DNA of 20,548 nucleotides from a virus. Taxonomy: Duplodnaviria > Heunggongvirae > Uroviricota > Caudoviricetes. The first letter of the stretch is position 1. Each line of letters opens with the position of its first letter. Below are positions 1 to 16,191 of this stretch, piece by piece. A program made the position numbers and the translations under genes. The stretch is taken from IMG/VR virus record IMGVR_UViG_2872698443_000003; one strand, 5' to 3'. Below the pieces are notes generated by a model. It did not search any database and was not told the origin of the DNA. It saw only the letters and a list, made by a program, of their open reading frames with translations.

Positions 1-366
1 ATGATTGATGTCTTAGGACCGGAGAAACGCAGACGGCGTACTACACAGGAAAAGATCGCTATTGTTCAGCAGAGTTTTGAACCGGGAATGACGGTCTCCC
101 TTGTTGCCCGGCAACACGGTGTGGCAGCCAGCCAGTTATTTCTCTGGCGCAAGCAATACCAGGAGGGAAGTCTTACTGCTGTGGCCGCAGGAGAGCAGGT
201 CGTTCCTGCCTCTGAACTTGCTGCTGCCATGAAGCAGATTAAAGAACTCCAGCGCCTGCTCGGCAAAAAAACGATGGAAAATGAACTCCTTAAAGAAGCC
301 GTTGAATACGGGCGTGCAAAAAAGTGGATAGCGCACGCGCCCTTATTGCCCGGGGATGGGGAGTAA
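1..366 (+). CDS. insC: IS2 transposase OrfA (InsC), 121 aa
   Basis: Track ORF 1..366; protein [30 protein letters not shown]... recognised as IS2 InsC. Confidence 0.92.
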
Positions 367-1229
367 GCTTAGTCAGCCGTTGTCTCCGGGTGTCGCGTGC
401 GCAGTTGCACGTAATTCTCAGACGAACCGATGACTGGAAAGATGGTCGCCGCAGCCGTCACTCAGATGATACGGATGTGCTTCTCCGTATACACCATGTT
501 ATCGGAGAGCTGCCCACGTATGGTTATCGTCGGGTATGGGCGCTGCTTCGCAGACAGGCCGAACTTGATGGTATGCCTGCGATCAATGCCAAACGTGTTT
601 ACCGGATCATGCGCCAGAATGCGCTGTTGCTTGAGCGAAAAACCGCTGTACCGCCATCGAAACGGGCACATACTGGCAAAGTGGCCGTGAAAGAAAGCAA
701 TCAACGATGGTGCTCTGACGGGTTCGAGTTCCGCTGTGATAACGGAGAAAAACTGCGAGTCACGTTCGCGCTGGACTGCTGTGACCGTGAGGCACTGCAC
801 TGGGCAGTCACTACGGGCGGCTTCGACAGTGAAACAGTACAGGACGTCATGCTGGGAGCGGTGGAACGCCGCTTCGGCAACGAGCTTCCGGCGTCTCCAG
901 TAGAGTGGCTGACGGATAATGGTTCATGCTACCGGGCTAATGAAACACGGCAGTTTGCCCGGATATTGGGGCTTGAACCGAAGAACACGGCGGTGCGGAG
1001 TCCGGAGAGTAACGGCATAGCAGAGAGCTTCGTGAAAACGATAAAGCGTGACTACATCAGTATCATGCCTAAACCAGACGGGTTAACGGCAGCAAAGAAC
1101 CTTGCAGAGGCGTTCGAGCATTATAACGAATGGCATCCGCATAGTGCACTGGGTTATCGCTCGCCACGGGAATATCTGCGGCAGCAGGCCAGTAATGGGT
1201 TAAGTGATAACAGGTGTCTGGAAATATAG
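324..1229 (+). CDS. insD: IS2 transposase OrfB (InsD), 301 aa, -1 frame relative to insC; OrfAB fusion expected by programmed frameshift
   Basis: Track ORF 324..1229 with DDE-type integrase core; overlaps insC at AAAAAAG 318-324. Confidence 0.92.
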
Positions 1230-1240
1230 GGGCAAATCCA

Positions 1241-1744
1241 CTGCAACGTGCCGGAATCGATTTGGCGATCTACTTTGATGATGCGCCGTCAGCGCAACTC
1301 ACTCATCACTTTCTGATGGATGAAGAAATCCTGCCAGTATGTAGCCCGGAATACGCTCAAAGACATGCTTTAACCAACACGGTAATTAACCTGTGTCACT
1401 GTACGTTGCTCCATGACAGACAGGCATGGAGCAACGACTCCGGTACGGATGAATGGCATAGTTGGGCGCAACATTATGCGGTTAATTTGCCGACATCTTC
1501 TGGAATTGGCTTTGATCGTTCTGATTTAGCTGTTATTGCCGCGATGAATCATATTGGGGTGGCGATGGGAAGAAAACGCCTGGTACAAAAAAGGCTTGCC
1601 AGTGGTGAGCTCGTCGCGCCGTTTGGCGATATGACGGTGAAATGCCATCAGCATTATTACATCACCACATTACCGGGCAGGCAGTGGCCAAAAATTGAAG
1701 CGTTTATTACCTGGCTAAGAGAACAGGTAAAAACCACTTCATAA
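1241..1744 (+). pseudogene. LysR-family transcriptional regulator, C-terminal substrate-binding portion only (about 168 codons); 5' half replaced by IS2
   Basis: Track ORF 1214..1744 begins inside the IS2 right end, so its first codons are IS-derived; no HTH N-terminus. Position next to the torI/attR end matches the K-12 dsdC neighbourhood (synteny inference, not sequence recognition). Confidence 0.6.
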
Positions 1745-1839
1745 TGAATAAAACCACGAGTTCCTGGTGTGCCTTATTCGGCCTGCTAGTTCGAATTTAA
1801 TTTACGGTTTTTATGTGGTTTTAGGGATAAACACAAGGA

Positions 1840-1854
1840 TGGTGTCCCCTGCAG
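1840..1854 (-). other. attR core: TGGTGTCCCCTGCAG, reverse complement of the 3' end of tRNA-Arg (argW)
   Basis: Match to recalled argW 3' terminus CTGCAGGGGACACCA; orientation agrees with minus-strand int at the far end; lies immediately outside torI. Confidence 0.6.
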
Positions 1855-1927
1855 ACATCTACTTGAGGCGGCATGGGATTGATTGGAATGGTGTTTTTTA
1901 GATGTGAAAAATATTTTACCCGCTATT

Positions 1928-2128
1928 TTACCCATTAGCGCGGCTTAAGAGCTTATTTTTGAATTCACAATGGTCACGATATAACCATCTTGCTCGCCCG
2001 TGGATAACTTTGGCTTTTGGCAGGTCGCCGGACTTAATCCGGTCATAGATGAAGGTTTTACCAAAGCCAGTATCAGCCATGATGAATTTCAAATCAACCA
2101 GTGAATCAGGCTGTAGTTCGTGTTGCAT
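1928..2128 (-). CDS. torI: TorI, KplE1 excisionase/recombination directionality factor and Tor response-regulator inhibitor, 66 aa
   Basis: Track ORF 1928..2128; protein MQHELQPDSLVDLKFIMADTGFGKTFIYDRIKSGDLPKAKVIHGRARWLYRDHCEFKNKLLSRANG matches E. coli K-12 TorI as recalled. Confidence 0.9.
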   Translation of the reverse strand: MQHELQPDSLVDLKFIMADTGFGKTFIYDRIKSGDLPKAKVIHGRARWLYRDHCEFKNKLLSRANG

Positions 2129-2171
2129 GAGTGCTATCTCCGAATAGGGAATCGAACCTGCAAATCAGGTA

Positions 2172-2194
2172 ATAAAAAACCGCCATCAGGCGGC
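2172..2194 (-). terminator. Rho-independent terminator (stem CCGCC/GGCGG, loop ATCA, T-run on the minus strand)
   Basis: Hairpin 2180-2193 followed on the minus strand by TTTTTTATT (plus-strand A-run 2174-2179); stop codon of the upstream small ORF lies in the loop. Confidence 0.55.
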
Positions 2195-2353
2195 TTGGTG
2201 TTCTTTCAGTTCTTCAATTCGAATATTGGTTACGTCTGCATGTGCTATCTGCGCCCATATCATCCAGTGGTCATAGCAGTCGTTGATGTTCTCCGCTTCG
2301 ATAACTCTGTTGAATGGTTCTCCATTCCATTCACCTGTGACTCGGAAGTGCAT
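2186..2353 (-). CDS. Small hypothetical protein, 55 aa (MHFRVTGEWNGEPFNRVIEAENINDCYDHWMIWAQIAHADVTNIRIEELKEHQAA), below the track's length cutoff
   Basis: Manual translation; ATG 2353 preceded by GGAG at about 8 nt; ends inside the terminator loop. Confidence 0.45.
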   Translation of the reverse strand: MHFRVTGEWNGEPFNRVIEAENINDCYDHWMIWAQIAHADVTNIRIEELKEHQAA

Positions 2354-2433
2354 TTATCATCTCCATAAAACAAAACTCGCCGTAGCGAGTTCAGATAAAA
2401 GAAATCCATCAATTGGTTAGGGTTTTTGTAATT

Positions 2434-2625
2434 CTACGAATTATGTTGTTTTTTAGCTTCAGCTTTCCATTCATCAAAGGCAGTGTCTTTGTTCATGGTG
2501 CTGATATTGATCTTACGGTCAATATCATATACACGCCACTCACCGTTAGGCCTCTCTTCGCATCTAACTAAGTATGAATTGCCATTAATATCTATGCGTC
2601 TGTCTATTTGCATGAACATTTTCAA
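2434..2625 (-). CDS. Hypothetical prophage protein, 63 aa
   Basis: Track ORF in the leftward operon, no overlap with better ORFs. Confidence 0.5.
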   Translation of the reverse strand: MKMFMQIDRRIDINGNSYLVRCEERPNGEWRVYDIDRKINISTMNKDTAFDEWKAEAKKQHNS

Positions 2626-2736
2626 TTTTCGAACCCTCTTTAATATGCATTTTTTGCTATTTCAGTAGTTTACTATTGATGAGGCGTTATTATACACACT
2701 TCATTAATGCAAGCATCTTTATGCTATGCTACTAAT

Positions 2737-3018
2737 TTAGCAATTGATATTTACCTTTATCGCGTATACCTTAACCGGTTTATCGCCGAAGTGGGGATGT
2801 GTGATTGTCTTGATTTCATATCCACCATACGGAACATCAATTCTACGGCTGGAATCGTCGCGCTTCGGATATCCCTTTGTGATAATCAGGCGGTCATACT
2901 CCCGGAACATAATTCGCTTATTCCAATAGTCATTACACAGGCGATACTCTTCCGTTTTCTCTCCTCGAATCATGGCATCGAAGTATTCACCTTTGACGGC
3001 AAGTTGCAGGTTAGCCAC
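2737..3018 (-). CDS. Hypothetical early-operon protein, 93 aa from GTG start (track ORF extends to 3087)
   Basis: GTG 3018 preceded by AGGAGG at 6 nt; the longer track start would overlap the upstream gene by 77 nt. Confidence 0.55.
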   Translation of the reverse strand: MANLQLAVKGEYFDAMIRGEKTEEYRLCNDYWNKRIMFREYDRLIITKGYPKRDDSSRRIDVPYGGYEIKTITHPHFGDKPVKVYAIKVNINC

Positions 3019-3577
3019 GGTTAACCTCCTGCGGCGGCTCTGGTAGCGGCATCCAGTGTGACGGCTCACATACCCCCTCAACACCATTCATGTAAAAGAA
3101 TTGAAATAACCCTTTACCTTTGTGAAACCCTACCATCTGCTCTTTTGTGTCTGAACAATAAACCAAAACATCTTCTTCGTTTGGCATTCGCTCACTACAG
3201 CTTATCCAACTATCCGGAGTTACCGGAGAGTTGCCCGATAGCTGGTTCAACTTGTAAGTTTGGCTTACAGGTTCGGCTTTCAGTTCTGCTATGCGCTTTT
3301 TTGCTGTTTCCAGCTCATCCAGCAGCGCCAAGACGGTAGCCGGATTGGCTGCGGCGATGAATTCAGCATTGGCCTGCTGTTCCATTTGGAAATCTTCATC
3401 GAAGCCGCTTTCAGGATGCGCTCCTTCAATTCTGCAAATGGGAAGATATCCAACAACGTCACGATGAATTAGCGCATCACCAGCATCAAGCCTCTCCTCT
3501 CCATATTCTAGCGACCACACACCACACGTTGCTTTCTCTGCCGCCTCACGCAGTGCCTGATAGTCAATCTTGCTCAC
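3011..3577 (-). CDS. Ead/Ea22-like N-terminus plus DUF551-like C-terminus, lambdoid early accessory protein, 188 aa
   Basis: Track ORF; N-terminus [24 protein letters not shown]... and C-terminal WISCSERMP...HWMPLPEPP resemble Ea22/DUF551 proteins (recalled family features). Confidence 0.6.
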   Translation of the reverse strand: MSKIDYQALREAAEKATCGVWSLEYGEERLDAGDALIHRDVVGYLPICRIEGAHPESGFDEDFQMEQQANAEFIAAANPATVLALLDELETAKKRIAELKAEPVSQTYKLNQLSGNSPVTPDSWISCSERMPNEEDVLVYCSDTKEQMVGFHKGKGLFQFFYMNGVEGVCEPSHWMPLPEPPQEVNRG

Positions 3578-4056
3578 TGGTCGCCTCCTTTGCGAAGCTG
3601 GTCGGCGAACAAACGTACACTAGACGCTTCACTGCGTAGAAACTTAACGGCATAATCAAAACCACCTCGTTCTGCGTCGTCTGCTCCGTTGTCGAGGTTA
3701 TCTGCGTACATCTCTACCCCCTGCGCCCGTACTTCAGCCAGGAAAGCATCGGTAGATGGGGTGTTAAGTGAAAAGTCCTGTCGGCCTGATTTCAGATACG
3801 CAATGGCGATCTTTGTTGCTGCGCATTCGACAGCGAATTTCTCTTTTTCAGCAGCCATCTTCGCGCACTTGGCCTCAAGGTTATCAATCGTGATTCCAGC
3901 AGAACGACACTCCCGCAACGCCGTTTCCAGTTTTGATTCAAGTTCACCGAACTTACGCACCAGATATTCAGCGTTTGTTTCGTTAACCTTTAAATCACTT
4001 GGGATGCATTTACCTTTCAGAAATCCATCCATCTCAATTAGTGACATTTGTTTCAT
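3574..4056 (-). CDS. Coiled-coil Ea22-like early protein, 160 aa from the internal ATG (track start 4074 is GTG)
   Basis: ATG 4056 overlaps the stop of the upstream 54-aa ORF in an ATGA motif; stop overlaps the next start (ATGA at 3574-3577). Confidence 0.5.
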
Positions 4057-4217
4057 TTCTTCCCACTCCGCCACATTGCATTCAGATATTTGTTGTCATT
4101 AACAGAACCGAAACTATTTCTCTTAAGCAATTCCTCTCTCGATGGCATTGGCTTTACGCGTTGGCGAATAATCATTTCTGCCGGAAGAATGCCGGGATTG
4201 TATGCAAGTCCTCTCAT
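4053..4217 (-). CDS. Small hypothetical protein, 54 aa ([54 protein letters not shown])
   Basis: Manual translation; ATGA overlaps at both ends (4214-4217 and 4053-4056); GGAGAG upstream. Confidence 0.4.
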
Positions 4218-4504
4218 GATTTACTCTCCACGAACTGGTCAACGGCCATGCTAAGTGACACACCTAAAGTATCGATATGCTGCTGAATATCCTGTAGCGT
4301 CCGCGCTTGAGATAACAGAATTTCACGGTTGCATAACTCTTTAACCAGATGCTCAAACTTGCTGTAATAACCGATACGGCTTAGTGTTTCTTTCCCTGCA
4401 TTCTCACCTTCTTTGATAATTCCTCTTTCGCTAAGAATCAGGTCGTGTTTGGTTCCGGTAATAACGTATTTGCCGAGGTCGATGTTTAGCTTCATTGTTT
4501 TCAT
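4214..4504 (-). CDS. Hypothetical protein, 96 aa from ATG 4504 (track ORF 4214..4657 has a longer, overlapping start)
   Basis: ATG 4504 preceded by GAGGAA at about 8 nt and lies 10 nt after the upstream stop. Confidence 0.5.
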
Positions 4505-4514
4505 TGTTAATTCC

Positions 4515-4811
4515 TCAGTCATTACTGATAGCGCCATAGCGTGAGCGGTAATTACGCAGGCGCGGGTCGATATATTCAGGGAAGTGGGTATATGTGGCTT
4601 TGCGGAATGGTCGGATTGATGTCTGGTAAATTCGCTCTCGTTCTTCTTTCTCTGCAAGCCATATACAGTGGCGAAATTCCTTTTCTTCTTTCGTTTCCTG
4701 CGGTAGCGACATTATCCGGTCGTAGTTTTTCCTGAATTTATCCAGCACCTCCGATACGGAATTGCCGGAACAGCGGCGCGCGTCGTCCGCACCATACAGA
4801 GGCGCTGGCAT
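4515..4811 (-). CDS. Hypothetical basic protein, 98 aa
   Basis: Track ORF; AGGAG 6 nt upstream of ATG 4811. Confidence 0.55.
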   Translation of the reverse strand: MPAPLYGADDARRCSGNSVSEVLDKFRKNYDRIMSLPQETKEEKEFRHCIWLAEKEERERIYQTSIRPFRKATYTHFPEYIDPRLRNYRSRYGAISND

Positions 4812-4824
4812 GATTTTCTCCTGA

Positions 4825-5340
4825 TTAAATTGCGTGAATAGCGTGACGAGGGAAGGGGAGGGTTACTGGCGCAAAAGGTATATCGTCGTCAAACTCCATA
4901 GGTGGTTCGCTGTGATTTACCTGCTTCTGAGGCTGCTGTTTTTGTTGCTGACCGTTATTTCGCTGAGGTGAAGACTGTTCATTGCTTCCTTGCTTGCCAC
5001 CAAGCATTTGCATGGTTCCACCAACGCCCACGATAACTTCGGTAGTGAACCGATCCTGTCCGCTTTGATCCTGCCATTTTCTTGTCCGCAATTTTCCTTC
5101 AAGATAAACCTCAGAGCCTTTTCGCAGATATTCGCTGGCAATTTCTGCCAGTTTCCCGCTCATTACCACACGGTGCCACTCCGTCTGCTCCTTTTGCTCT
5201 CCAGTTTGCTTATCACGCCATTGTTCTGACGTAGCAACTATAAGGTTTGCAAATGCCGTTCCTGATGGTGAATATCTGATTTCTGGATCATGCCCAAGGC
5301 GACCAATAATGATCACCTTATTTACGCCTCTACTTCCCAT
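4825..5340 (-). CDS. ssb: Phage single-stranded DNA-binding protein with a 15-residue extension after the canonical DDDIPF tail, 171 aa
   Basis: N-terminal OB-fold region closely matches E. coli SSB as recalled ([51 protein letters not shown]...[10 protein letters not shown]); C-terminus reads ...[24 protein letters not shown]. Confidence 0.88.
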
Positions 5341-6048
5341 TTATGCCGCCTGTTTTAGTTCGTTAACTCTGATGTTCATTACCTGAACGCATTTAGCCTG
5401 CGCATCCTCATTGCCAGCCATTAATTGCCAGTCATGCTGATAACGTTCTATGAGTTTTTTCTTGTCAGTTTCTGTTGATGCATAATCGCTGAAGTCTTTC
5501 AGGATTTGTTCGCAGTCAACCGATGGAGATTTCTGGTTGGTATTTTCTGGTGATGGTTTGTTATCTGATGCTGGGATTGCCCAGCCCGGCAGCGATGGAG
5601 GGAGCCAGTAAAATCCTGTTCCATCCTTCAGTTTTGCCCTGTGCCACCCCTGCTTTTTATCGGGAGATGTTTGTGCGAAACCTTCCTCAAGGTTATACAG
5701 ATACCGACCGATTCCCCACTGAACGGCAGCGCGCTTCATTGCACCGGAACGACCACCTTTGACGGCTTCTACCTGCGTGTTTTCAGCAGCATCCCATTTG
5801 GTTACCCATTCGGAATCAATCTTTATTGATATGCCGCATTCAACGCCGCCGTTGTTGGGAATATCGCGGTATTCATTGCGCCATCCTGCTTTGCCACAAA
5901 CATCGTCAAGGCGTTTCATGATTGCCCGGTTCGTAACATAAGCCAGCACCATAGCCCACACCTTGCCATCGCGTGTTTTACCGCTTTGCTGTATTCGCCA
6001 TTCGATATCTTCAGGGCAGAATGGCTCATCGAATTTGTTCAAATCCAT
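5341..6048 (-). CDS. Rad52/Sak-type single-strand annealing recombinase, 235 aa
   Basis: Track ORF directly upstream of and abutting ssb; motifs resembling the Rad52/22 family (recalled, not searched). Confidence 0.55.
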   Translation of the reverse strand: MDLNKFDEPFCPEDIEWRIQQSGKTRDGKVWAMVLAYVTNRAIMKRLDDVCGKAGWRNEYRDIPNNGGVECGISIKIDSEWVTKWDAAENTQVEAVKGGRSGAMKRAAVQWGIGRYLYNLEEGFAQTSPDKKQGWHRAKLKDGTGFYWLPPSLPGWAIPASDNKPSPENTNQKSPSVDCEQILKDFSDYASTETDKKKLIERYQHDWQLMAGNEDAQAKCVQVMNIRVNELKQAA

Positions 6049-6056
6049 AATTCACC

Positions 6057-6227
6057 TCAGAATGGACATGGCCCAAGGAAATAACGCTGGTTTAATACTT
6101 CGACTCGGGACAAATTAAGGCATACCCGCATTCCTTCGCGGTCACCATTATGGCGATACCAGAGAGCTTTTTGCGTGTACATGCGTCTCTGTAACTTGCT
6201 CTCCTTCACTGTGGTTGCAAGTGACAT
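6057..6227 (-). CDS. Small hypothetical ORF, 56 aa, strong SD (GGAGAT) but overlaps the 6148..6306 ORF out of frame
   Basis: Manual translation (MSLATTVKESKLQRRMYTQKALWYRHNGDREGMRVCLNLSRVEVLNQRYFLGPCPF). Confidence 0.3.
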   Translation of the reverse strand: MSLATTVKESKLQRRMYTQKALWYRHNGDREGMRVCLNLSRVEVLNQRYFLGPCPF

Positions 6228-6306
6228 GAATATCTCCTTCGTTACCGATTAATTCTTTCATCTGACGAATGAATTCTTCGTCTGACCAGTTATCTGTAAA
6301 ACTCAT
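6148..6306 (-). CDS. Small acidic hypothetical protein, 52 aa
   Basis: Manual translation; start ATG overlaps the upstream stop in ATGA at 6303-6306. Confidence 0.35.
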   Translation of the reverse strand: MSFTDNWSDEEFIRQMKELIGNEGDIHVTCNHSEGEQVTETHVHAKSSLVSP

Positions 6307-6455
6307 TTCCTGCGATACCACGGAATGTTGATCGCTGATTTCATCGCTTTATTTGCTTCAAGCCACATTTTGGAATCACCAATAAATCTGGCTATTACTG
6401 CTTTGTTCTGTGCAGCACGAAGCATCTGGTGATTAATGACTATTTCATTGCGCAT
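6303..6455 (-). CDS. Small hypothetical protein, 50 aa (MRNEIVINHQMLRAAQNKAVIARFIGDSKMWLEANKAMKSAINIPWYRRK)
   Basis: Manual translation; GGAGG 5 nt upstream of ATG 6455. Confidence 0.4.
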   Translation of the reverse strand: MRNEIVINHQMLRAAQNKAVIARFIGDSKMWLEANKAMKSAINIPWYRRK

Positions 6456-6574
6456 AACGCCTCCAGTTGTTTCTTTGCTGCTCTGATTAATTGTTTAACT
6501 CGGCGTGATAATTCAGATTCGTGCGGGTAGAAAGCGGACATGACGCCGCTACCCGCGAGCTGAAAGTGCATCAT
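6440..6574 (-). CDS. Small hypothetical protein, 44 aa from the internal ATG; the longer track ORF 6440..6679 would read through a terminator
   Basis: AAGGAG 7 nt upstream of ATG 6574; terminator 6641-6664 sits inside the longer track ORF. Confidence 0.4.
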   Translation of the reverse strand: MMHFQLAGSGVMSAFYPHESELSRRVKQLIRAAKKQLEALCAMK

Positions 6575-6640
6575 GGGTAACTCCTTATATTTGATTGCAT
6601 AACGAAAACGCCTCAAGTGAAGCGTTATTGGTATGCATAT

Positions 6641-6664
6641 AAAAAAGCCCCCACACTGGAGGGC
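6641..6664 (-). terminator. Rho-independent terminator on the minus strand
   Basis: Minus-strand RNA GCCCUCCAGUGUGGGGGC followed by UUUUUU. Confidence 0.55.
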
Positions 6665-6759
6665 AAAGAAGATTTCCAATAATCAGAACAAGTCGGCTCC
6701 TGTTTAGTTACGAGCGACATTGCTCCGTGTATTCACTCGTTGGAATGAATACACAGTGC

Positions 6760-6963
6760 TTATTCGCGAGCTTTGAGCATTGCGTCTGCAAACTTATATG
6801 CAGCGCTTGCTGCATAATTAACAGCTCCATCAGAATCATTATCGATAATCGATGGATTGCTAATCATTGCTTGCATAGCCTTTGCCGCGAAGTAATCACG
6901 TAATGTCGCATCACTTGCCATTTCTGGGCGTTTGATATCTGCTTCGTAAAACTCGCACATCAC
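6760..6963 (-). CDS. Hypothetical early protein, 67 aa
   Basis: Track ORF; start overlaps the upstream stop (ATGA at 6960-6963). Confidence 0.5.
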   Translation of the reverse strand: MMCEFYEADIKRPEMASDATLRDYFAAKAMQAMISNPSIIDNDSDGAVNYAASAAYKFADAMLKARE

Positions 6964-7256
6964 TCACCTCCCAGAGCCTTGATGATTGCTGCAAAACCTT
7001 TATTAACAGCTCCATACCATTCTGGATATGTTGTCGTTGTTCTATTTTTGGATTGCTTAAGTAATAACTGAAGTGCTTCGAGAAGGTCAGGTGCTGCCGC
7101 TATTAGATTGGCATCTTCAATGCATTGAACTTCCTCACAGATTGCAATATACGAACGCCAGCCTGCGCCATTTTCAAGAGAGTCTGCCTGGATGATTTTA
7201 ATCTCATCGCCATCCATCATTATTTCCCACTTACCTTCAGTACCTTTAAATTCCAT
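6960..7256 (-). CDS. Hypothetical early protein, 98 aa
   Basis: Track ORF in the leftward operon. Confidence 0.5.
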   Translation of the reverse strand: MEFKGTEGKWEIMMDGDEIKIIQADSLENGAGWRSYIAICEEVQCIEDANLIAAAPDLLEALQLLLKQSKNRTTTTYPEWYGAVNKGFAAIIKALGGE

Positions 7257-7276
7257 GTTAGCCTCTGTTGTTTATG

Positions 7277-7307
7277 CCAAAAATAAAGGCCACCATCAGG
7301 CAGCCTT
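7277..7307 (-). terminator. Rho-independent terminator, related in sequence to the one at 2172-2194
   Basis: Minus-strand stem of about 9 bp (two G-U pairs), loop UGAU, then UUUAUUUUUGG; stop of the 7296..7496 ORF lies in the loop. Confidence 0.5.
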
Positions 7308-7496
7308 GTTGTTCAGTTTACCAAGTTCTCTGGCAATCATTGCCGTCGTTCGTATTGCCCATTTATCGACATATTTCCCATCTTCCATTACAGGAAACAT
7401 TTCTTCAGGCTTAACCATGCATTCCGATTGCAACTTGCATCCATTGCATCGTTTGAATTGTCCACACCATTGATTCTTATCAATAGTCGTAGTCAT
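7296..7496 (-). CDS. Cys-rich small protein, 66 aa, possible zinc-binding
   Basis: Track ORF; C-x4-C-x2-C-x5-C spacing in the N-terminal half. Confidence 0.5.
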   Translation of the reverse strand: MTTTIDKNQWCGQFKRCNGCKLQSECMVKPEEMFPVMEDGKYVDKWAIRTTAMIARELGKLNNKAA

Positions 7497-7574
7497 ACGG
7501 ATAGTCCTGGTATTGTTCCATCACATCCTGCGGATGCTCTTCGAACTCTTCAAATTCTTTTTCCATATCTCACC

Positions 7575-7901
7575 TCAAATAAGTGGTTTGCTGCCTAATT
7601 TCATTTTCTGGCGACCAACACAAGTCACACCCATTTCACTGCGTGGCTTGCTGTACCATGTGCGCTGATTCTTGCGCTCAATACGTTGCAGGTTGCTTTC
7701 AATCTGTTCGTGGTATTCAGCCAGCACCGTAAGGTCTATCGGATTCAGTGCGCTTTCTACTCGTGATTTCGGTTTGCGATTCAGCGAGAGAATAGGGCGG
7801 TTAACTGGTTTTGCGCTTACCCCAACCAACAGGGGATTTGCTGCTTTCCATTGAGCCTGTTTCTCTGCGCGACGTTCGCGGCGGCGTGTTTGTGCATCCA
7901 T
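7575..7901 (-). CDS. N: Antitermination protein N (lambda-like), 108 aa from the internal ATG
   Basis: MDAQTRRRERRAEKQAQWKAANPLLVGVSAKPVNRPILSLNRKPKSRVESALNPIDLTVLAEYH... matches lambda N as recalled; the track ORF's 30 extra N-terminal codons are not part of N. Confidence 0.9.
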   Translation of the reverse strand: MDAQTRRRERRAEKQAQWKAANPLLVGVSAKPVNRPILSLNRKPKSRVESALNPIDLTVLAEYHEQIESNLQRIERKNQRTWYSKPRSEMGVTCVGRQKMKLGSKPLI

Positions 7902-8011
7902 CTGGATTCTCCTGTCAGTTAGCTTTGAGTAACGCGCCGTGATGCTTATCTCCACGGTTGCTGTCTTGCAGCTGCATTTCGCGCTACTCAAAGCCTTCTG
8001 CTTTGAATGCT

Positions 8012-8042
8012 GCCCTTCTTCAGGGCTTAATTTTTAAGAGCC
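8012..8042 (-). promoter_or_regulatory. nutL site: boxA (GCTCTTAAAAATTAA) and boxB hairpin (GCCCTGAAGAAGGGC)
   Basis: Minus-strand sequence GAGGCTCTTAAAAATTAAGCCCTGAAGAAGGGCAGC, near-identical to lambda nutL as recalled. Confidence 0.85.
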
Positions 8043-8082
8043 TCACCTTCAATGGTGGTTAGTGCGTCCTGCTGATGGCTAA

Positions 8083-8111
8083 ATAGTACGATTTGTACTT
8101 TATCGAGTCAA
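8083..8111 (-). promoter_or_regulatory. Candidate pL promoter (-35 TTGACT, 17-nt spacer, -10 TACTAT) with operator palindrome AGTAC-N5-GTACT at 8085-8099
   Basis: Read on the minus strand upstream of nutL; palindrome overlaps the spacer and -10. Confidence 0.5.
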
Positions 8112-8174
8112 TACAAAATGTTCTAAATATAATTGGTTTTTTATAACGCTTTGTATTTAATGGGTTTATATTTT

Positions 8175-8206
8175 GGAAAAAGAAAACCCGACACTAAGGT
8201 CGGGTT
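8175..8206 (-). terminator. Rho-independent terminator downstream of cI
   Basis: 8-bp stem AACCCGAC/GTCGGGTT with 6-nt loop, followed on the minus strand by TTCTTTTTCC. Confidence 0.6.
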
Positions 8207-8236
8207 ATTGTTGTGTGCTTTAGAGTGGTGAGGCTG

Positions 8237-8896
8237 TTAACTAAATGTCTCTTCAGGCCACTGGCTGGCGATAACTTTCCCTACAACGGAACAGCTATCA
8301 TTGCATGGGATCATTGGATATTGCGGGTTTAGTGGCTGTAGGAACACCTGACCGCTATCCCTGATCAGTTTCTTGAAGGTAAACTCGTCACCACCAAGTC
8401 TGGCTATGCAGAAATCACCTGGCTCAACAGCCTGCTCAGGGTCAACGAGAATTAACATCCCGTCAGGAAAGCTTGGCTTGGATCCTGTTGGCGCGGTCAT
8501 GGAATTACCTTCAACTTCAAGCCAGAACGCACAATCACTGGCTTTTTTGGTTGTGCTGACCCATCTCTCCGCATCACCTTTGGTAAAGGTTCTAAGCTCA
8601 GGCGAGAACATCCCGGCCTGAACATGAGAAAAAACAGGGTACTCATATTGTTTTTTAACGGGGGCAGATGAGTATTCGCCAACAGGTGAAAATGTACCGT
8701 CGTGGTTGAATGAGACGTTATCAATACCAAGGTATTTAAACACCACACCAATCTCGTCAAGAGATGGATGACGAGATCCGCGCAACCAGTGACCAATTCC
8801 ACCCTGCGTCATACCAAGCTCTTCAGCTAACTTCTCTTGAGTTATGCCGAGCTCTTTCATTCTGGATCTAGCCAGTTCATACCATTTCATTTTCAT
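8237..8896 (-). CDS. cI: CI-type prophage repressor: lambda-identical C-terminal dimerisation/autocleavage domain, divergent N-terminal HTH domain
   Basis: From ...[39 protein letters not shown] onward the protein matches lambda CI as recalled; N-terminus ([37 protein letters not shown]) does not. Start is ambiguous (ATG 8896, 8890 or 8932; possibly leaderless). Confidence 0.85.
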
Positions 8897-8952
8897 ACCC
8901 TTATTATTACGCTCTGTACTAAAACCATCCATGCACAAGATGTATTTTTTGT

Positions 8953-8981
8953 TTGCATTCTAAAAGTACATATCGTATTAT
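8953..8981 (+). promoter_or_regulatory. Candidate pR promoter (-35 TTGCAT, 17-nt spacer, -10 TATTAT) with operator half-palindrome AGTAC-N5-GTATT at 8965-8979
   Basis: In the 70-110 bp cI-cro divergent region; motif related to the pL-side palindrome. Confidence 0.45.
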
Positions 8982-9007
8982 TGTTTCATGGTTACTATGG
9001 AGGGCAT

Positions 9008-9223
9008 ATGAGCAACCTACGAAAATATCGAGAGTCACTGAATATCTCTCAAACAACACTTGCTAAGGCAGTTGGATGCACACAGGGAGCTATCGGACAT
9101 TGGGAATCTGGTCGTCGCTTCCCAGACCTTAAAACATGCCGTGCTCTTGTTGAGTGCCTAAACAAGTTAGGCGCAAAAGTCAGTCTTGATGACGTGTTCC
9201 CGCCGGAACACAAAGCCGCTTAA
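9008..9223 (+). CDS. cro: Cro-like HTH (XRE-type) repressor, 71 aa
   Basis: ATG 9008 with GGAGGG upstream; HTH ISQTTLAKAVGCTQGAIGHWESG; position between the operators and nutR. Track ORF 8837.. has a spurious N-terminal extension. Confidence 0.75.
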   Translation: MSNLRKYRESLNISQTTLAKAVGCTQGAIGHWESGRRFPDLKTCRALVECLNKLGAKVSLDDVFPPEHKAA

Positions 9224-9231
9224 GACATTCC

Positions 9232-9263
9232 CGCTCTTACACATCCCAGCCCTGAAAAAGGGC
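9232..9263 (+). promoter_or_regulatory. nutR site: boxA CGCTCTTA and boxB GCCCTGAAAAAGGGC
   Basis: CGCTCTTACACATCCCAGCCCTGAAAAAGGGC, near-identical to lambda nutR as recalled. Confidence 0.85.
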
Positions 9264-9342
9264 ATCAAATTAAACCACACCTATGGTGTATGCATTTATT
9301 TGCATACCTTCAATCAATTGTTATCTAAGGAAATACTTACAT

Positions 9343-9636
9343 ATGGTTCGTGCAAACAAACGCAACGAGGCTCTAAGAATCGAGAGTGCGTTGCTTAACA
9401 AAATCGCAATGCTTGGAACTGAGAAGACAGCGGAAGCTGTGGGAGTTGATAAGTCGCAGATCAGCAGGTGGAAGAGGGATTGGATTCCAAAGTTCTCAAT
9501 GCTGCTTGCTGTTCTTGAATGGGGCGTCGTCGACGACGATATGGCTCGATTGGCACGACAAGTTGCTTCGATTCTCACCAATAAAAAACGCCCGGAGGCA
9601 ACCGAGCGTTCTGAACAAATCCAGATGGAATTCTGA
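9343..9636 (+). CDS. cII: Transcriptional activator CII (lambda-like), 97 aa
   Basis: [75 protein letters not shown]... matches lambda CII as recalled; ATG at 9343. Confidence 0.9.
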
Positions 9637-9668
9637 GGTCATTACTGGATCAATCCACAGGAGTCATT

Positions 9669-9815
9669 ATGACAAAACAACTCAGTCCTTACCAGGACAA
9701 AATTCACAAACACATACTACGTGATCGCTTCCTGTCCAGCTTCAAGCAGCCTGGTCGATTCCGGGCTGAGTTGGAAAAAGTGAAGCTGATGCAGAAGGAG
9801 AAAGGTCATGAGTAA
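9669..9815 (+). CDS. Small hypothetical protein, 48 aa, between cII and the replication initiator
   Basis: Manual translation ([48 protein letters not shown]); AGGAG 6 nt upstream; overlaps the next start by 8 nt. Confidence 0.4.
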
Positions 9816-10668
9816 TCTTGCAACCGTAACACATTTAAGGCCTTCACAACGGCCTGTGGAGCGTCGTGTGGCAGAAGTTGAAGATGGTTATACCCGTCTT
9901 GCAAATGCCCTGTATGAAGAGCTTATCGGCGCAGATTTAACGAAAAATCAGAGCAAGGTTGCCCACGCCATATGCCGTAAAACATACGGCTACGGTAAAA
10001 AGATGGATCGCATTTCTGATAGTCAGTTAGCTCAAATTACCAGGCTGCCAAGACAGAAGGTAAACAAGGCCAAGAATGAGCTTATCGCGATGAAGGTTAT
10101 CCTTCGCGAAGGCCAGCAAATCGGGCCTAACAAGAACATCGAAGAATGGCAAATCGAAGGGTGTCACTACTCTGGTGATAATGTCACTGCATTGGTGACA
10201 AAAAGTGTCACCAAAACGGTGACAGCGCTGTCACCAAAACAGGGACACACAAAAGAAACTATTACAAAAGAAAAAAGAAATAATAAAAACACTATGTCCG
10301 AAAGTGTTCGGACGGAGTGTGAAAAATCATCTGACCGTCACGAAGAAACCGACAAGGCATTCGAGGAAATATTCTGGTGTGCAGGCATGCGGAAAGCCGG
10401 GAAGAAAAACGCGGCTTCGGCATTCAGAACACAGTTCAGGGAATGGCGTAAAACTACCAGGGGTACGGCAAGCGAGTTTGCCACGATGCTGGCAGAAGAC
10501 ATCGCATGCAGGAATGGTAAGCAGTTCGGATTCGACAGGTTGTTACCATCGAGCTACCTGAACGGTCAACGCTGGAACGACGAGAAGCCAGAAACTATTC
10601 AACCACAATCCAAACCATCATCCGCAATCACCGTATCGAAAACTGGCTACGTGTTTTTCGACAGGTGA
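9808..10668 (+). CDS. Replication initiator / replisome organiser (O-like), 286 aa, with origin iterons inside the gene
   Basis: Track ORF at the O position after cII; internal GTGACA/TGTCACC iterons plus AT-rich tract. Confidence 0.6.
10160..10296 (+). repeat. Candidate replication origin: iterons (GGTGACA-N5-TGTCACC, GGTGACA-N4-TGTCACC plus half-sites) followed by an AT-rich tract at 10250-10296
   Basis: Seen directly: ...GGTGACAAAAAGTGTCACCAAAACGGTGACAGCGCTGTCACCAAAACAGGGACACACAAAAGAAACTATTACAAAAGAAAAAAGAAATAATAAAAAC. Confidence 0.6.
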
Positions 10669-10671
10669 ACC

Positions 10672-10779
10672 ATGAAATCAAAAATCAAATCGCTACTGGT
10701 CGCTGGTTATAACCACGGCTGGTTAAGTATTTCGTTTGTCGATTTCTGGTTTAAAAATCTCAATCTGAGGGAATCATGA
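10672..10779 (+). CDS. Micro-ORF, 35 aa, hydrophobic (MKSKIKSLLVAGYNHGWLSISFVDFWFKNLNLRES)
   Basis: AGGTGA upstream; stop overlaps the primase-helicase start (ATGA at 10776-10779). Confidence 0.3.
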   Translation: MKSKIKSLLVAGYNHGWLSISFVDFWFKNLNLRES

Positions 10780-12656
10780 CGCCAAGTGAACTTAGCGACC
10801 TGCTTTGGGCGCAGGTTGACAGGGTGGCTCCGCACCTGTTGCCAAACGGCAAGAAAGAGGGGCATGAGTGGGTTGCCGGTAACGTCAACGGTGACAAGGG
10901 AAACAGCCTTAAGGTCAACCTTAGCGGCAAGAAAAAATGGGCTGATTTCGCTGAGGGAGACGGCGGTGACATGCTTGATTTGTGGATGGCATGTCGTGGA
11001 ATTAACCTGCATCAGGCTATGCAGGAAGCGAAAGCCTTTCTCGGAATCAAGGATGACGATCACCATTTCGATGCCAAACGTGAGAAGAAATTCTCCAGAC
11101 CTGACCGCAAGAAAATCGCCCGCTACGTTACCAGAACAGAATCCCATCTTGAGTACCTGCAATCGCGTGGCATATCGCCAGAAGTCGTAAAGCGCTACGA
11201 GGTTGTCAGCGGCAAGGTGTGGAAGGGAGAACGAGAACTTGATGCACTGGTGCTTCCGTACAAACGCGATGGTGAGTTGTTGCAGGTCAAGCGAATCAGC
11301 ACTGAGCGCCCGGACGGGAAGAAAGTCATTATGGCAGAAGGTGATTGCGAACCTTGTCTGTTCGGATGGCAGGCTCTGGACGCTGGCGTGAGGGCGGTTG
11401 TGCTTTGCGAAGGCGAAATTGATTGTATGAGCTATGCGCAATACGGCATCTCGGCGTTATCCGTGCCGTTTGGTGGAGGGAAAGGCGCTAAGCAACAGTG
11501 GATTGAGTTTGAGTACCACAACCTCGACAGGTTTGAGGAAATATTCATCTCGATGGACGTTGATGATGTTGGTCGTGAAGCCGCAAGGGAAATCGCAAGC
11601 CGACTCGGTGAACATCGTTGCCGTCTTGTTACTCTGCCGTACAAAGACATCAACGAATGCCTGATGAACGGTGTTACCGAGGATGAAATCTGGCAGTACA
11701 TCGGCACGGCATCCTACTTCGATCCTGAAGAACTCTACAGTGCGCGAGAGTTTTACCAGGACACTATCAACGCTTTCTACGGCAAGCAGCAGTATCTGTT
11801 TAATCCACCGTGGGAATCTCTGGCAGATAAATTCCAGTTCCGTGAGGCAGAGTTGACGCTGGTCAATGGTGTGAACGGTCACGGAAAAACGGAGGTTGTC
11901 GGGCATATGGCACTTGAGGCAATGCGTCAGGGTGTGAAGACGTGCATCGCGTCACTTGAGCTGAAGCCTGGTATTCTCCTTAAGCGCCTTACCCGTCAGG
12001 CGACGTGCTGCAAGATGCCGCCAGTGCTGGAAATTGACTCTGCATTTAAATTTTATGACGAAAGACTTTGGGTGTTTGGTCTGACCGGAACGGCGAAAGC
12101 CGACAGGCTGATCGAAATATTCGACTACGCTCGCCGCCGATACGGGATCCAGTTATTCATCATCGACAGCCTGATGAAATGTGGCATAGGCGACGATGAC
12201 TATAACGGGCAGAAGGCGTTTGTTGACTCGATTTGCGACTTCAAAAACAAAACAAACTCCCACGTCATTCTCGTTACTCACTCGCGAAAAGGAGACAGCG
12301 AAGAAAAACCAACCGGGAAAATGGACGTAAAAGGCTCTGGAGCGATAACAGACCTGACAGACAACCTTTTCATCATCTGGCGTAACAAGGCTCGCGAGAG
12401 AGCGTTACAGAGAGTTCAGAGTGGTGAAAAGATGTCAGAGAAGGACGAACAGCTACTGGCATCTCCGGCATCTGTTTTGATGCTTGAAAAACAACGTAAC
12501 GGCGAAGGTTGGGAAGGTGGTGTCCCGTTGTTCCTTGACGAGCAATCGCACCAGTTCCTGCAACTTGAATCAGGATCGCCATATAGCTACATCGCCAATA
12601 TGCCGAAATCGGAATATGACGAGGCGTGGCGACAGGAAAACGTGACGGAGTATTAA
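10776..12656 (+). CDS. Bifunctional primase-helicase (Toprim domain plus DnaB/RecA-like helicase core), 626 aa
   Basis: Toprim-like VVLCEGEIDCMS and ISMDVDD; Walker A NGVNGHGKT; Walker B-like LFIIDSL; occupies the lambda P position. Confidence 0.7.
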   Translation: MTPSELSDLLWAQVDRVAPHLLPNGKKEGHEWVAGNVNGDKGNSLKVNLSGKKKWADFAEGDGGDMLDLWMACRGINLHQAMQEAKAFLGIKDDDHHFDAKREKKFSRPDRKKIARYVTRTESHLEYLQSRGISPEVVKRYEVVSGKVWKGERELDALVLPYKRDGELLQVKRISTERPDGKKVIMAEGDCEPCLFGWQALDAGVRAVVLCEGEIDCMSYAQYGISALSVPFGGGKGAKQQWIEFEYHNLDRFEEIFISMDVDDVGREAAREIASRLGEHRCRLVTLPYKDINECLMNGVTEDEIWQYIGTASYFDPEELYSAREFYQDTINAFYGKQQYLFNPPWESLADKFQFREAELTLVNGVNGHGKTEVVGHMALEAMRQGVKTCIASLELKPGILLKRLTRQATCCKMPPVLEIDSAFKFYDERLWVFGLTGTAKADRLIEIFDYARRRYGIQLFIIDSLMKCGIGDDDYNGQKAFVDSICDFKNKTNSHVILVTHSRKGDSEEKPTGKMDVKGSGAITDLTDNLFIIWRNKARERALQRVQSGEKMSEKDEQLLASPASVLMLEKQRNGEGWEGGVPLFLDEQSHQFLQLESGSPYSYIANMPKSEYDEAWRQENVTEY

Positions 12657-12685
12657 ATGACCATCTACATCACTGAGCTAATAAC

Positions 12686-12717
12686 AGGCCTGCTGGTAAT
12701 CGCAGGCCTTTTTATTT
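12686..12717 (+). terminator. Rho-independent terminator after the primase-helicase
   Basis: Stem AGGCCTGC/GCAGGCCT with 8-nt loop, followed by TTTTTATTT. Confidence 0.6.
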
Positions 12718-12732
12718 GGGGGAGAGTAAATC

Positions 12733-12939
12733 GTGGCTGAGTTTATGCTCGTCGCATTCAAATGCGTTGGCGTTGGATGGATTCTTCTGACGTTTTTTAT
12801 TGTTCTGCATAGCTACATTCGTCTTGTGAATGACGGTAAAGACCCATGGTATACGTTGTTTGGCGCTGCATTTGTCTGGGTGATTATCGGTGTTATGCCT
12901 GTCGCTGTAGCAAAAATGGCGTGGCGTTTTGTGAGTTGA
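12733..12939 (+). CDS. Small membrane protein, 68 aa, two predicted transmembrane helices
   Basis: Track ORF, GTG start with GGGGGAGAG upstream; hydrophobic stretches LVAFKCVGVGWILLTFFIVL and FGAAFVWVIIGVMPVAVA. Confidence 0.5.
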   Translation: MAEFMLVAFKCVGVGWILLTFFIVLHSYIRLVNDGKDPWYTLFGAAFVWVIIGVMPVAVAKMAWRFVS

Positions 12940-12956
12940 ACTGAGGGTAAGTATCG

Positions 12957-13313
12957 ATGGACGAATCAAGAAAGCAGTTTGAGGAATACGTTGCCAAAAA
13001 ATTGAGATTACCATTCGAGATGATAACCGAGGCAAGAAATGGTGATAGGTACTTCGCATTTTCAAGCATGGATATTCGTCACTCCTTAAATGAGTGGTGG
13101 ACTTTATGGCAGGCATCGCGAGCAGCTATTGAACTGGATATCGACTGGCCAGAATCGAATGACGACTTTTGGAAAGATGGTGAAGAAGGTGCTTATGCGA
13201 TGGGTTATGAGGATGGGCGTGACAAAACGGTAATTGCAGTAATGAAAGCTATCAGAGCCGCTGGAATTAAAGAGAAGAATTTCGATGAAGCAAACAATAT
13301 TCCTCCGAACTAA
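12957..13313 (+). CDS. Hypothetical acidic protein, 118 aa, at the position lambda uses for ren
   Basis: Track ORF; GAGGGT upstream. Confidence 0.5.
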   Translation: MDESRKQFEEYVAKKLRLPFEMITEARNGDRYFAFSSMDIRHSLNEWWTLWQASRAAIELDIDWPESNDDFWKDGEEGAYAMGYEDGRDKTVIAVMKAIRAAGIKEKNFDEANNIPPN

Positions 13314-13695
13314 GCAACAACAGCAAGCCGCAATCAACGCCATCCTCGCAACACCACTCGATAAAGACAAGCCAGTCACCATCCGCATTACTGACTACAA
13401 GCGCAACCTTGACCAGAACGCAAAATTTCACGCGATGCTGGCGGATATCGCACGTCAGGTTCAATGGTGCGATAAGTGGTTAAAACCAGAACAATGGAAG
13501 GTTTTGTTGATTAGCGGTCATGCAGTGGCAACAAAGCAGGAAGCTGATGTTTTACCCGGCCTTGAAGGCGAATACGTCAACATTCGCGAAAGCAGCGCGC
13601 AGATGAGCGTGAAGCGTATGGCAAGTCTTATCGAGTACACAACAGCATGGGCTATTGGTCAGGGTGTCAGATTTACCGACAGGAGGTACGAATGA
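13285..13695 (+). CDS. ninB: NinB (Orf) recombination mediator, 136 aa
   Basis: Track ORF; similar in length and in the central ...LDQN... region to lambda NinB as recalled. Confidence 0.7.
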
Positions 13696-13868
13696 GGCGA
13701 CAGCGACGAAGTTTCACCGACATCATCTGCGAAAACTGCAAATACCTTCCAACGAAACGCTCCAGAAATAAACGCAAGCCAATCCCAAAAGAATCTGACG
13801 TAAAAACCTTCAATTACACAGCTCACCTGTGGGATATCCGGTGGCTAAGATATCGTGCGAGGAAATGA
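13692..13868 (+). CDS. ninE: NinE, 58 aa
   Basis: [58 protein letters not shown] matches lambda NinE as recalled; ATG 13692 with AGGAGG upstream; ATGA overlap with ninB. Confidence 0.85.
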
Positions 13869-14212
13869 CAATGGATTATTCACAGTTAAGTGATTTTGAA
13901 ATTAACAGAATGGTAGGAGACATAATTTTTAAAGGCCTTTGGGCAAGTAAACCGGAAACATCAGGGAATAACACCAACAAATGGTATTACGGAAATGCTG
14001 ATACAACTTTTGAGCCATTAAATCATTTGCCTGACTACTGCAATGATCCGAGCGCTTCATGGCCGATTATTGAGAAATACAGGATTTCTATCTTAGACCA
14101 GTTAACTGAATGGTGTGTGGATGCAAAAGGCGTAAGCCCAATATTTGATACCAGACCTCTCCGCGCCGCCATGATTGTCTTTCTCATGATGCAGGACGCC
14201 AATAATGCTTAG
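13865..14212 (+). CDS. Hypothetical nin-region protein, 115 aa (possibly DUF2591/NinX-like)
   Basis: ATG 13865 overlaps the ninE stop (ATGA); track ORF 13829.. has a short upstream extension. Confidence 0.5.
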
Positions 14213-14381
14213 CCCATCCCAATCCCTTCAATACCAGAAAGAAAGCGTCGAGCGGGCTTTAACGTGCGCTAACTGCGGTCAGAAGCTGCATGTGCTGGAA
14301 GTTCATGTGTGTGAGCACTGCTGCGCAGAACTGATGAGCGATCCGAATAGCTCAATGTACGAGGAAGAAGACGATGAATGA
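14205..14381 (+). CDS. ninF: NinF, 58 aa, below the track cutoff
   Basis: Manual translation [58 protein letters not shown] matches lambda NinF as recalled. Confidence 0.8.
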
Positions 14382-15096: not shown

Positions 15097-15386
15097 TGGC
15101 TAACCTACGCAAAGAAGCGCGCAACAGAGAATGCCAGGTACGTATTTACGGCGTATGCAATGGCAACCCTGAAACTACAGTTCTGGCACATTACCGGATG
15201 GCTGGAATTTGCGGAACGGGAATGAAACCTGACGACCTGATCGGCGCATGGGCTTGTAGCGCGTGTCACGATGAAATCGACCGACGTACCCATAATATCG
15301 ACAACAAAGACGCCAGACTTTACCACCTCGAAGGCGTGATCAGGACGCAGGCGATACTGCTGAAGGAGGGGAAGATTAAGTCATGA
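15096..15386 (+). CDS. YbcO-like (DUF1364) protein, putative nuclease, 96 aa
   Basis: Resembles DLP12 YbcO as recalled (CQVRI.GVCNGNPET.VLAH.R..G.CGTG.KP.DL...ACSACHDEIDRRTH). Confidence 0.7.
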   Translation: MANLRKEARNRECQVRIYGVCNGNPETTVLAHYRMAGICGTGMKPDDLIGAWACSACHDEIDRRTHNIDNKDARLYHLEGVIRTQAILLKEGKIKS

Positions 15387-15745: not shown

Positions 15746-15930
15746 ACGCCACAATTCAAACGATACCAGAGCTTCTTATCCAGACACGAGGCAATCAGAC
15801 CGAAGTGGCGAGGATGCTTTCCTGCGCAAGAGGAACAGTGCTCAAGTACAACCGAGACAGCAAAGGTGAGCGTCACGTAATAGTTAACGGCGTCCTGATG
15901 GTCAAACAGGGCAAGAGGGGAAGACCATGA
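15742..15930 (+). CDS. ninH: NinH, 62 aa
   Basis: TIPELLIQTRGNQTEVARMLSCARGTVLKYNRDSKGERHVIVNGVLMV resembles lambda NinH as recalled. Confidence 0.75.
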   Translation: MNATIQTIPELLIQTRGNQTEVARMLSCARGTVLKYNRDSKGERHVIVNGVLMVKQGKRGRP

Positions 15931-16136: not shown

Positions 16137-16191
16137 GGTAATGCTGCCAACTTACTGATTTAGTGTATGATGGTGTTTTTGAGGTGCTCCA

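Follow-up and report, generated by a model that had tools for sequence, protein, structure and literature searches.

Two Similar Gene-End Hairpins, Predicted Terminators at Mosaic Joints, in the Early-Left Operon of a Lambdoid Prophage

Introduction

When two short segments of one phage operon share a hairpin, a loop and the placement of a stop codon, are they copies of a single element, interchangeable joints through which gene modules are reshuffled, or separate elements built alike? The question is raised by two loci, here called A and B, in a 20,548-nucleotide stretch of DNA (the window; IMG/VR record IMGVR_UViG_2872698443_000003). A preliminary description, made from the letters of the window, had proposed a duplicated module boundary, possibly a recombination linker between gene modules, and had named two comparisons that bear on the proposal: a pairwise alignment of the two loci and a search of related prophages for the shared motif at module junctions. 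Both are reported here, together with a comparison of the pair with other phage terminators.

Results

The prophage and its early-left operon

The window contains an E. coli prophage of the Sf6/HK620/KplE1 lambdoid type, which occupies it from position 1839 onward. Positions 1-1838 are host DNA, in which the LysR-type regulator gene dsdC (C-terminal part, 1214-1744) is broken by an IS3-family element on the plus strand (orfA, 1-366; orfB, 324-1229). The prophage end, placed at ~1839 by homology to the Sf6 attP core, fits an insertion at the argW-dsdC site. On the minus strand is the early-left (pL) operon, with N, ral, accessory genes, cIII, kil, erf, ssb, abc2, an ea22-like gene, orf55 and, as the xis equivalent, torI. 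The immunity region begins at about 8100-9300; beyond it, replication and nin genes are on the plus strand. An IS1 (insA/insB, 16192-16889) sits inside the gene for antiterminator Q; after it come a 252-aa C-terminal fragment of a tail fibre or tailspike (16970-17728), a 447-aa ORF of no assigned function on the minus strand (phrog_14022, 17766-19109) and intS. In strain TUM9754, which is 100% identical over window positions 1-16904, Q resumes past IS1 and lysis and terminase genes follow. The window thus looks like a defective prophage of ~18.7 kb, with an IS1-associated loss of all late genes.

A terminator scan returned 35 terminator-like sites in the window, and a comparison of the whole window with Rfam at gathering thresholds returned no family. 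One strong terminator-like hairpin, GCTCGGTTGCCTCCGGGCGTTTTTTATT, lies at 9585-9612 on the minus strand, antisense to the cII region; it has no match in Rfam at the gathering threshold, and we take it to resemble the λ oop RNA terminator.

Hairpins at the ends of orf55 and ral

Element A (2171..2196, minus strand), a terminator predicted from the sequence, the terminator scan and the fold, reads AAGCCGCC-TGAT-GGCGGTTT from 2196 to 2177, followed by TTTATT. In the RNA, the stem AAGCCGCC/GGCGGUUU has eight pairs, with five G-C pairs at the core, and closes on a UGAU tetraloop at 2188..2185; directly 3' of the stem is the U-rich stretch UUUUUUAUU, with the U-tract at 2179..2174 and then AUU. Element B (7277..7307, minus strand), predicted on the same grounds and from its conservation, reads AAGGCTGCC-TGAT-GGTGGCCTT from 7307 to 7286, followed by TATTTTT. 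Its stem, AAGGCUGCC/GGUGGCCUU, has nine pairs (five G-C and two G-U) around a UGAU tetraloop at 7298..7295, with the U-rich tract UAUUUUUGG directly 3' of it. Both fold as predicted, A with -13.0 kcal/mol (z = -2.5) and B with -15.2 kcal/mol. The shared segments are therefore present as first described, apart from the strand, genes and terminators alike being read on the minus strand; the hairpins with a stop codon in the common loop are borne out as well.

The gene that ends in A, on the minus strand at 2186..2353, encodes 55 amino acids ending ...EELKEHQAA and is the homologue of λ orf55 (lambdap35, NP_597778), the λ DNA being nearly identical. The protein belongs to phrog_676 (E = 7e-40), is labelled hypothetical by PGAP and gave no family in Pfam; Orf55 has been modelled, and phage 933W is reported to retain only part of orf55, near xis (PMC8614690). 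The UGA stop of orf55 (2188..2186) lies within the loop of A, and the final two sense codons, GCC GCC, are the 5' arm of the terminator. At B the arrangement is the same: ral, identified by Pfam (PF11058, E = 2e-48, full length), λ alignment and PGAP, runs on the minus strand at 7296..7496 and encodes the 66-aa antirestriction protein Ral, which ends ...GKLNNKAA; its final codons, AAG GCT GCC, are the 5' arm of B, and its UGA (7298..7296) lies in the loop. The Ala-Ala ends noted at the outset are thus real. A GC-rich stem-loop with a U-tract, at a gene end and on the transcribed strand, is accordingly found at both loci.

Directly downstream of A is a putative pI-type promoter (2144..2171, minus strand), assigned by homology to Sf6/HK620 annotation: the Sf6 feature 'pI; possible integrase expression promoter' (L001 1806-1833) maps there through a 97.5% alignment. 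Next comes the torI-type excisionase (xis) gene (1928..2128, minus strand; Sf6p18, PGAP 'response regulator inhibitor TorI'). In λ, ...GAACACCAAGCCGCCTGATGGCGGTTTTTT lies between orf55 and xis and is followed directly by the cII-box-like TTGCGTGTAATTGC, which we take to be the cII box of pI. The ATG overlapping the orf55 stop (TGATG) was considered as the start of a further ORF and rejected, since it is not in the xis frame and opens no ORF of at least 40 aa. Another terminator-like hairpin, GAACTCGCTACGGCGAGTTT followed by TGTTTTAT, is found at 2373-2392 on the minus strand, just upstream of the orf55 ribosome-binding site, so that orf55 is bracketed by hairpins, this one and that at 2177-2196. 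The stretch 2356-2407 is also kept in Sf6, there upstream of the unrelated gene 19. Downstream of B lies a conserved spacer, GGCATAAACAACAGA (7262..7276, minus strand), delimited by downstream variants and breakpoints; it is common to several different downstream modules before they diverge and brings the B boundary block to ~50 nt. It is followed by a 98-aa ORF of no assigned function (phrog_1273, 6960..7256, minus strand), one of at least seven alternative modules at this place.

Occurrence and annotation in other phages

Both elements are present in λ, A at the orf55/xis junction and B at the ral/ea10 junction. The 67-nt block 2171-2237 recurs at 95-100% identity in 168 GenBank phage records, among them λ, HK022, 933W, VT2-Sakai, P22, ST64T, CUS-3 and Sf6, and the B block in 162. 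Two records annotate the sequence of A. The HK140 record (JQ086370, 22739-22761) labels it 'rho-independent terminator', and, as in the window, the lambdap35 homologue overlaps it with its 3' end; in P22-pbi (AF527608, 23398-23418) the hairpin is 't'I, 3'-end of aI RNA', on the opposite strand; these copies are 98-100% identical to A over 63-65 nt. In P22 the element follows a non-coding orf55 remnant and lies between eaG and eaC, the window having torI-type xis downstream instead. Neither A nor B has a name in the λ record or in the literature searched, where the named terminators tL2/tL3 and tL4 gave nothing relevant. The tL2a hairpin (GCCCTCCAGTGTGAGGGCGATTTTTT) is distinct from both, and an identification of A or B with it was rejected; its homologue sits at window 6647-6664 and is labelled tL2A in the Sf6 record.

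The P22-pbi feature (L123 1538-1558) corresponds to window 2177-2196; the antisense 'aI RNA' that it is said to terminate in that record, and the terminator as such, yielded nothing relevant in a literature search. On the plus strand of the window the A hairpin is followed by the T-rich CTTGGTGTTCTTTCAGTT. Judging from the sequence, A may be active in both directions, which could explain why ~45 nt of the orf55 end are kept in phages without orf55.

The stems of A and B variants, inspected by eye, are nearly invariant and carry one-sided changes only, some of which keep the pair (G-U to G-C, U-G to U-A) and others break it. λ itself has two G-to-A changes in its ral-end hairpin (AAAGCTGCC...AGTGGCC; L002 6565-6620, λ 34064-34119); its predicted stem is lost, with -6 kcal/mol, worse than shuffles, and most relatives are intact. 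The B terminator is therefore dispensable in at least one phage, and the two stem-breaking substitutions may be the reason why the λ copy was never named. In kind, and partly by annotation, A and B are already known: they are known terminators at boundary sequences of a known type.

How similar A and B are

The degenerate 15-mer GCYGCCTGATGGYGG occurs in the window only at A and B, even when two mismatches are allowed, against 0.10 occurrences expected from shuffles. Local alignment of 2160-2360 with 7270-7500 gave a score of 30 (shuffles 18.2 +/- 2.5), which one of 1000 shuffles reached, and A scored 31 against the commoner ral allele (shuffles 17-18 +/- 2.3); B is the best match of A within the window. 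The aligned stretch, of ~35-49 nt, consists of AGAACA.CAA, the stem, the loop and TTTATT, that is, of an A-rich flank, a hairpin and a U-tract. The 15-nt cores share 13 positions, the longest exact run is 9 nt and the overall match is gapped. With the hairpins removed no similarity is left, in the coding parts (p = 0.32) or in the downstream parts (p = 0.34), and BLASTP of Orf55 against Ral detects no homology (E = 0.9). In a repeat search of the whole window the A/B pair is absent from the best 20 direct repeats, which include many chance pairs of 24-31 nt at 65-80% identity.

A comparison with shuffled sequence takes no account of what terminators have in common. We therefore assembled a terminator-aware background of 195 terminator families from ~2.7 Mb of mostly lambdoid phage DNA, clustered by family, and left out those carrying the A/B motif, so that 183 were compared. 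Six of the 183 (3.3%) match A at least as well as B1, the hairpin allele of B at ral, and 12 come within 2 points; once two non-independent families are dropped, ~2% match A as well as B does. One such partner of A is expected by chance about as often as not, and with 35 terminator-like sites in the window and a background of 2-3% a partner as similar as B is unremarkable. The proposed alignment thus has a double outcome: the similarity is confined to the terminator, and it is real and above random sequence, yet not above what two intrinsic terminators show anyway.

These figures bear on the possibility of a true duplication, in which an ancestral terminator cassette, a portable unit of gene end and terminator, was copied elsewhere in the pL operon and A and B have since diverged. 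In its favour, the match is improbable against shuffled sequence (~1e-3) and B is the best partner of A in the window; the two also agree in loop, stop position and reading frame, and they lie on one strand of one operon. Yet outside ~35 nt nothing of A aligns with B, and unrelated terminators equal the match at the frequency just given. The GCYGCC-TGAT-GGYGG design, a GCC GCC TGA hairpin with a U-tract, moreover ends unrelated genes on other phage contigs (L096, L073, L037 and L029), and L085 has the same type of gene-ending hairpin with an AAA* end. Alleles at one locus (B1 and B2, A1 and A2; described below) also differ more in the inner stem and loop than A1 does from B1, so that hairpin similarity does not track descent; with A2 found at A and B2 at B, different hairpins fill the same place, and the hairpin sequence marks neither position nor descent. 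Copying of a single cassette is thus improbable, and of the 'duplicated module boundary' the duplication is not supported, the similarity being that of the terminator only. The boundary stands, as the joints at A and B show.

Mosaic joints at A and B

When the window was compared with 67 IMG/VR loci, homology around A broke off in 44 of them at 2171-2175, where the U-tract ends, and in 19 at 2233-2237, which is 47-51 nt into orf55. The last 41 nt of orf55 (2197..2237, minus strand) are thus co-inherited with the terminator, as Sf6 homology and the breakpoints indicate, and together with 2171-2196 they make up a block of 63-67 nt that is 95-100% identical even in phages without orf55. In Sf6, P22 and some IMG/VR contigs the block contains a non-coding orf55 remnant; homology to Sf6 extends as far as 2237, precisely where the stop codon of Sf6 gene 19 abuts the remnant. 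In all, A is found in at least five different upstream and at least four different downstream contexts. Upstream there is either intact orf55 or the remnant, preceded by at least four sequences including Sf6 gene 19 and P22 eaG; the U-tract is followed by at least four unrelated continuations, namely λ xis with pI, torI-type xis and two others. The torI module can also be preceded by another hairpin allele, A2 (CCGCA-TCAA-TGCGG), which shares with the window only GCGGTTTTTT and what follows. In its longer form (GCCGCA-TCAA-TGCGG + TTTTTT), upstream of CCTGATTTGCAGGTTCGATTCC, A2 is found at ~30 of 120 torI-type xis modules (loci L221-L297), attached to a different upstream gene; a few further copies have degenerate versions of the hairpin (CGCCGTCATAGAGCGTATTTTT).

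At B, breakpoints fall at 7264 in 16 loci and at 7276-7279 in nine. An unrelated 83-aa ORF (phrog_2471) that takes the place of ral keeps the last 14 nt before the stop, together with the terminator, and ends ...NKAA. The sister allele B2 (AGGCCG-CATAGT-CGGCCT), where both partners of one pair have changed and now form a T-T mismatch, shares with B1 the U-tract and the GGCATAAAC flank. It follows seven further unrelated ORF families, each joined at most 1 nt from the stem base: in two, translation continues as far as the loop TAG, giving ...EAA or ...KAA at the C-terminus, three use a stop created at the stem base (TAGGCC, TGAGGCC), and the other two end earlier. B and B2 together are preceded by at least nine unrelated ORF families and followed by at least seven downstream contexts. 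At A and at B alike, then, a conserved short sequence has non-homologous flanks on both sides, and each is a real mosaic joint, or module boundary, in lambdoid phages.

The slot between N and terminator B (window 7308-7575 region) is highly variable and holds ral or one of at least eight other unrelated ORF families (loci L007, L010, L041, L128-L131 and L145), with ORFs of 60-230 aa to which PHROGs and Pfam, where tested, assign no function. Such variability makes the slot, downstream of N and upstream of B, a candidate hotspot of accessory or anti-defence genes and a reasonable place to look for the latter.

It could be argued from these joints that the shared sequence is a recombination linker in the sense of Susskind and Botstein or of Clark, one of several short homologous border sequences through which homologous recombination would reshuffle modules, including between A and B. 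Each block is indeed conserved, with alternative modules on both sides and breakpoints clustered at its edges, and the Sf6 record has 'bsq' boundary sequences, a concept cited in PMC3029335, beside A (bsq2, L001 1593-1833, which abuts A and ends at its U-tract) and over the tL2A terminator (bsq4). However, a gapped match of ~35 nt, with cores alike at 13 of 15 positions and no exact run beyond 9 nt, is far too little for efficient homologous exchange, and no flanking module is common to the two loci. The search of related phages pointed the same way. Each block does lie at module junctions, but among at least 127 motif matches in IMG/VR there was no A/B hybrid hairpin and no ral-to-xis deletion joint, and among the matches listed every ral end has the B1 core and every orf55 end the A1 core. 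Mixed cores (GCT...GGC, GCC...GGT) do occur in IMG/VR, and were rejected as products of A/B exchange, being in unrelated, often high-GC contexts without a U-tract, or at other genes. Selection for intact genes alone would, besides, put surviving joints at gene ends. With no common flank and no hybrid among the matches listed, A and B are not shown to be one linker, and that the shared sequence serves as a recombination linker is decidedly improbable.

The Ala-Ala ends

The shared Ala-Ala is not independent evidence of kinship, since both proteins owe it to translation of one and the same stem sequence, GCY GCC. An ORF running into the stem would find a stop only in the A/U-containing loop, GCY GCC then being Ala-Ala, and in the other frames translation would go on past the entire terminator; a preference for the Ala-Ala frame follows from its being the only one in which the hairpin offers a stop. 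The ssrA tag has LAA at its end, and Orf55, Ral and the 83-aa, 207-aa and 107-aa ORFs all end -AA in the same stem frame. It is nevertheless very improbable that Ala-Ala was favoured by selection on the proteins themselves, for instance for a weak ssrA-like degradation signal on any gene docked in frame. The position of the stop already accounts for the frame preference; another five ORF families at the terminator of the B locus end ahead of the stem or at its base and lack an AA end; variant ends (-VA, -AE, -DE, -SA) occur; and the antepenultimate residues are polar (K, Q, E).

Discussion

The analysis leads us to regard A and B, with considerable confidence, as separate intrinsic (Rho-independent) terminators of the pL operon, each overlapping the end of a small accessory gene. 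Their resemblance reflects a shared terminator design (A-rich flank, GC stem, stop-holding tetraloop, U-tract) and not demonstrable common descent. Termination at the two sites is predicted, with the GenBank annotation of A in HK140 and P22 as support. RNA polymerase without N modification would stop at A and B, which would insulate the downstream modules, and the N-modified enzyme coming from pL would read through both. If unmodified polymerase terminates there, xis/torI and the genes below ral would be expressed from pL only after N. In λ, xis and int show N-dependent expression from pL, and torI and intS are regulated separately in this phage group (PMC2951348).

The position of the stop codons suggests a further property. 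Since the stop is inside the hairpin and the release point lies only ~10-17 nt beyond, a ribosome that reaches the end of orf55 or ral should mask the stem, so that transcripts with tightly coupled translation should be terminated less efficiently. A stop within about 20 nt of a terminator hairpin is reported to lower termination through ribosome interference (10.64898/2026.07.06.736697).

As to the mosaicism, one could envision the hairpin as the fixed piece at a gene-swapping site, with incoming genes attached either at its 5' edge or within the old gene, a few codons from the end. Whether the hairpins do more than border the joints that survive selection is another matter. The precision of the joints, with seven ORF families at most 1 nt from the stem base of B2 and many A joints at the end of the U-tract, hints at recombinogenic hairpins, and candidate routes would be annealing of short homologies inside the conserved terminator block of 45-67 nt, by recombinases of the Red/Erf type, or else a break or a template switch at the palindrome. 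We nevertheless consider it rather unlikely that the hairpins are the physical sites at which the joints formed.

The reading of A and B as separate terminators has little weight for new biology and will be of use mainly in annotation. Two unnamed, widely conserved pL terminators can be marked, one after orf55, upstream of pI and xis, and one after ral. In several small phage proteins the Ala-Ala end can be recognized as read-through of a terminator stem, and similarity between two terminators is best judged against other terminators and not against shuffled sequence. One point may concern specialists, namely the precise abutment of unrelated genes on the hairpin base, with the modest chance just considered.

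Among known systems, the arrangement recalls the morons, reportedly described by Juhala, Hendrix and co-workers in 2000 as accessory genes with a promoter and terminator of their own, inserted between phage genes. As in morons, small accessory genes of unassigned or defence-related function each come with a terminator, orf55 being bracketed by hairpins. Unlike morons, it is the terminator here that is constant and the gene that is exchanged, and no dedicated promoter was found. A second parallel is with the 'bsq' boundary sequences at mosaic joints of HK620/Sf6-type phages, reportedly described by Clark et al. (2001, J Mol Biol 311:657) and Casjens et al. (2004, J Mol Biol 339:379). We use 'bsq' in the sense of the Sf6 GenBank features and of PMC3029335, which cites the concept; so understood, A and B are like them in being short and conserved, with unrelated flanks and a position at gene borders. 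The Sf6 record annotates neither A nor B as bsq, and none of its bsq features covers the ral end; its bsq4 does, like A and B, include a terminator.

A third parallel is with terminators of λ. Its pL operon has the intrinsic terminators tL1, tL2a-d, tL3 and tI, through which N-modified RNA polymerase reads. A and B are like them in having a GC-rich hairpin with a U-tract on the leftward strand of an N-antiterminated early operon, and both elements occur at the homologous places in λ. λ differs from the window in that its own copy of B is crippled by two substitutions. From the usual terminators of E. coli, where most termination points lie 25-75 nt after the stop codon (PMC12207403), A and B differ in having the stop in the loop and the termination point ~10-17 nt past it. 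Two annotated copies of A itself are also known: t'I of P22-pbi (AF527608) is the same sequence, there read from the opposite strand and ending an antisense RNA, and the terminator of HK140 (JQ086370) is again the same sequence and likewise overlaps the end of a lambdap35 homologue.
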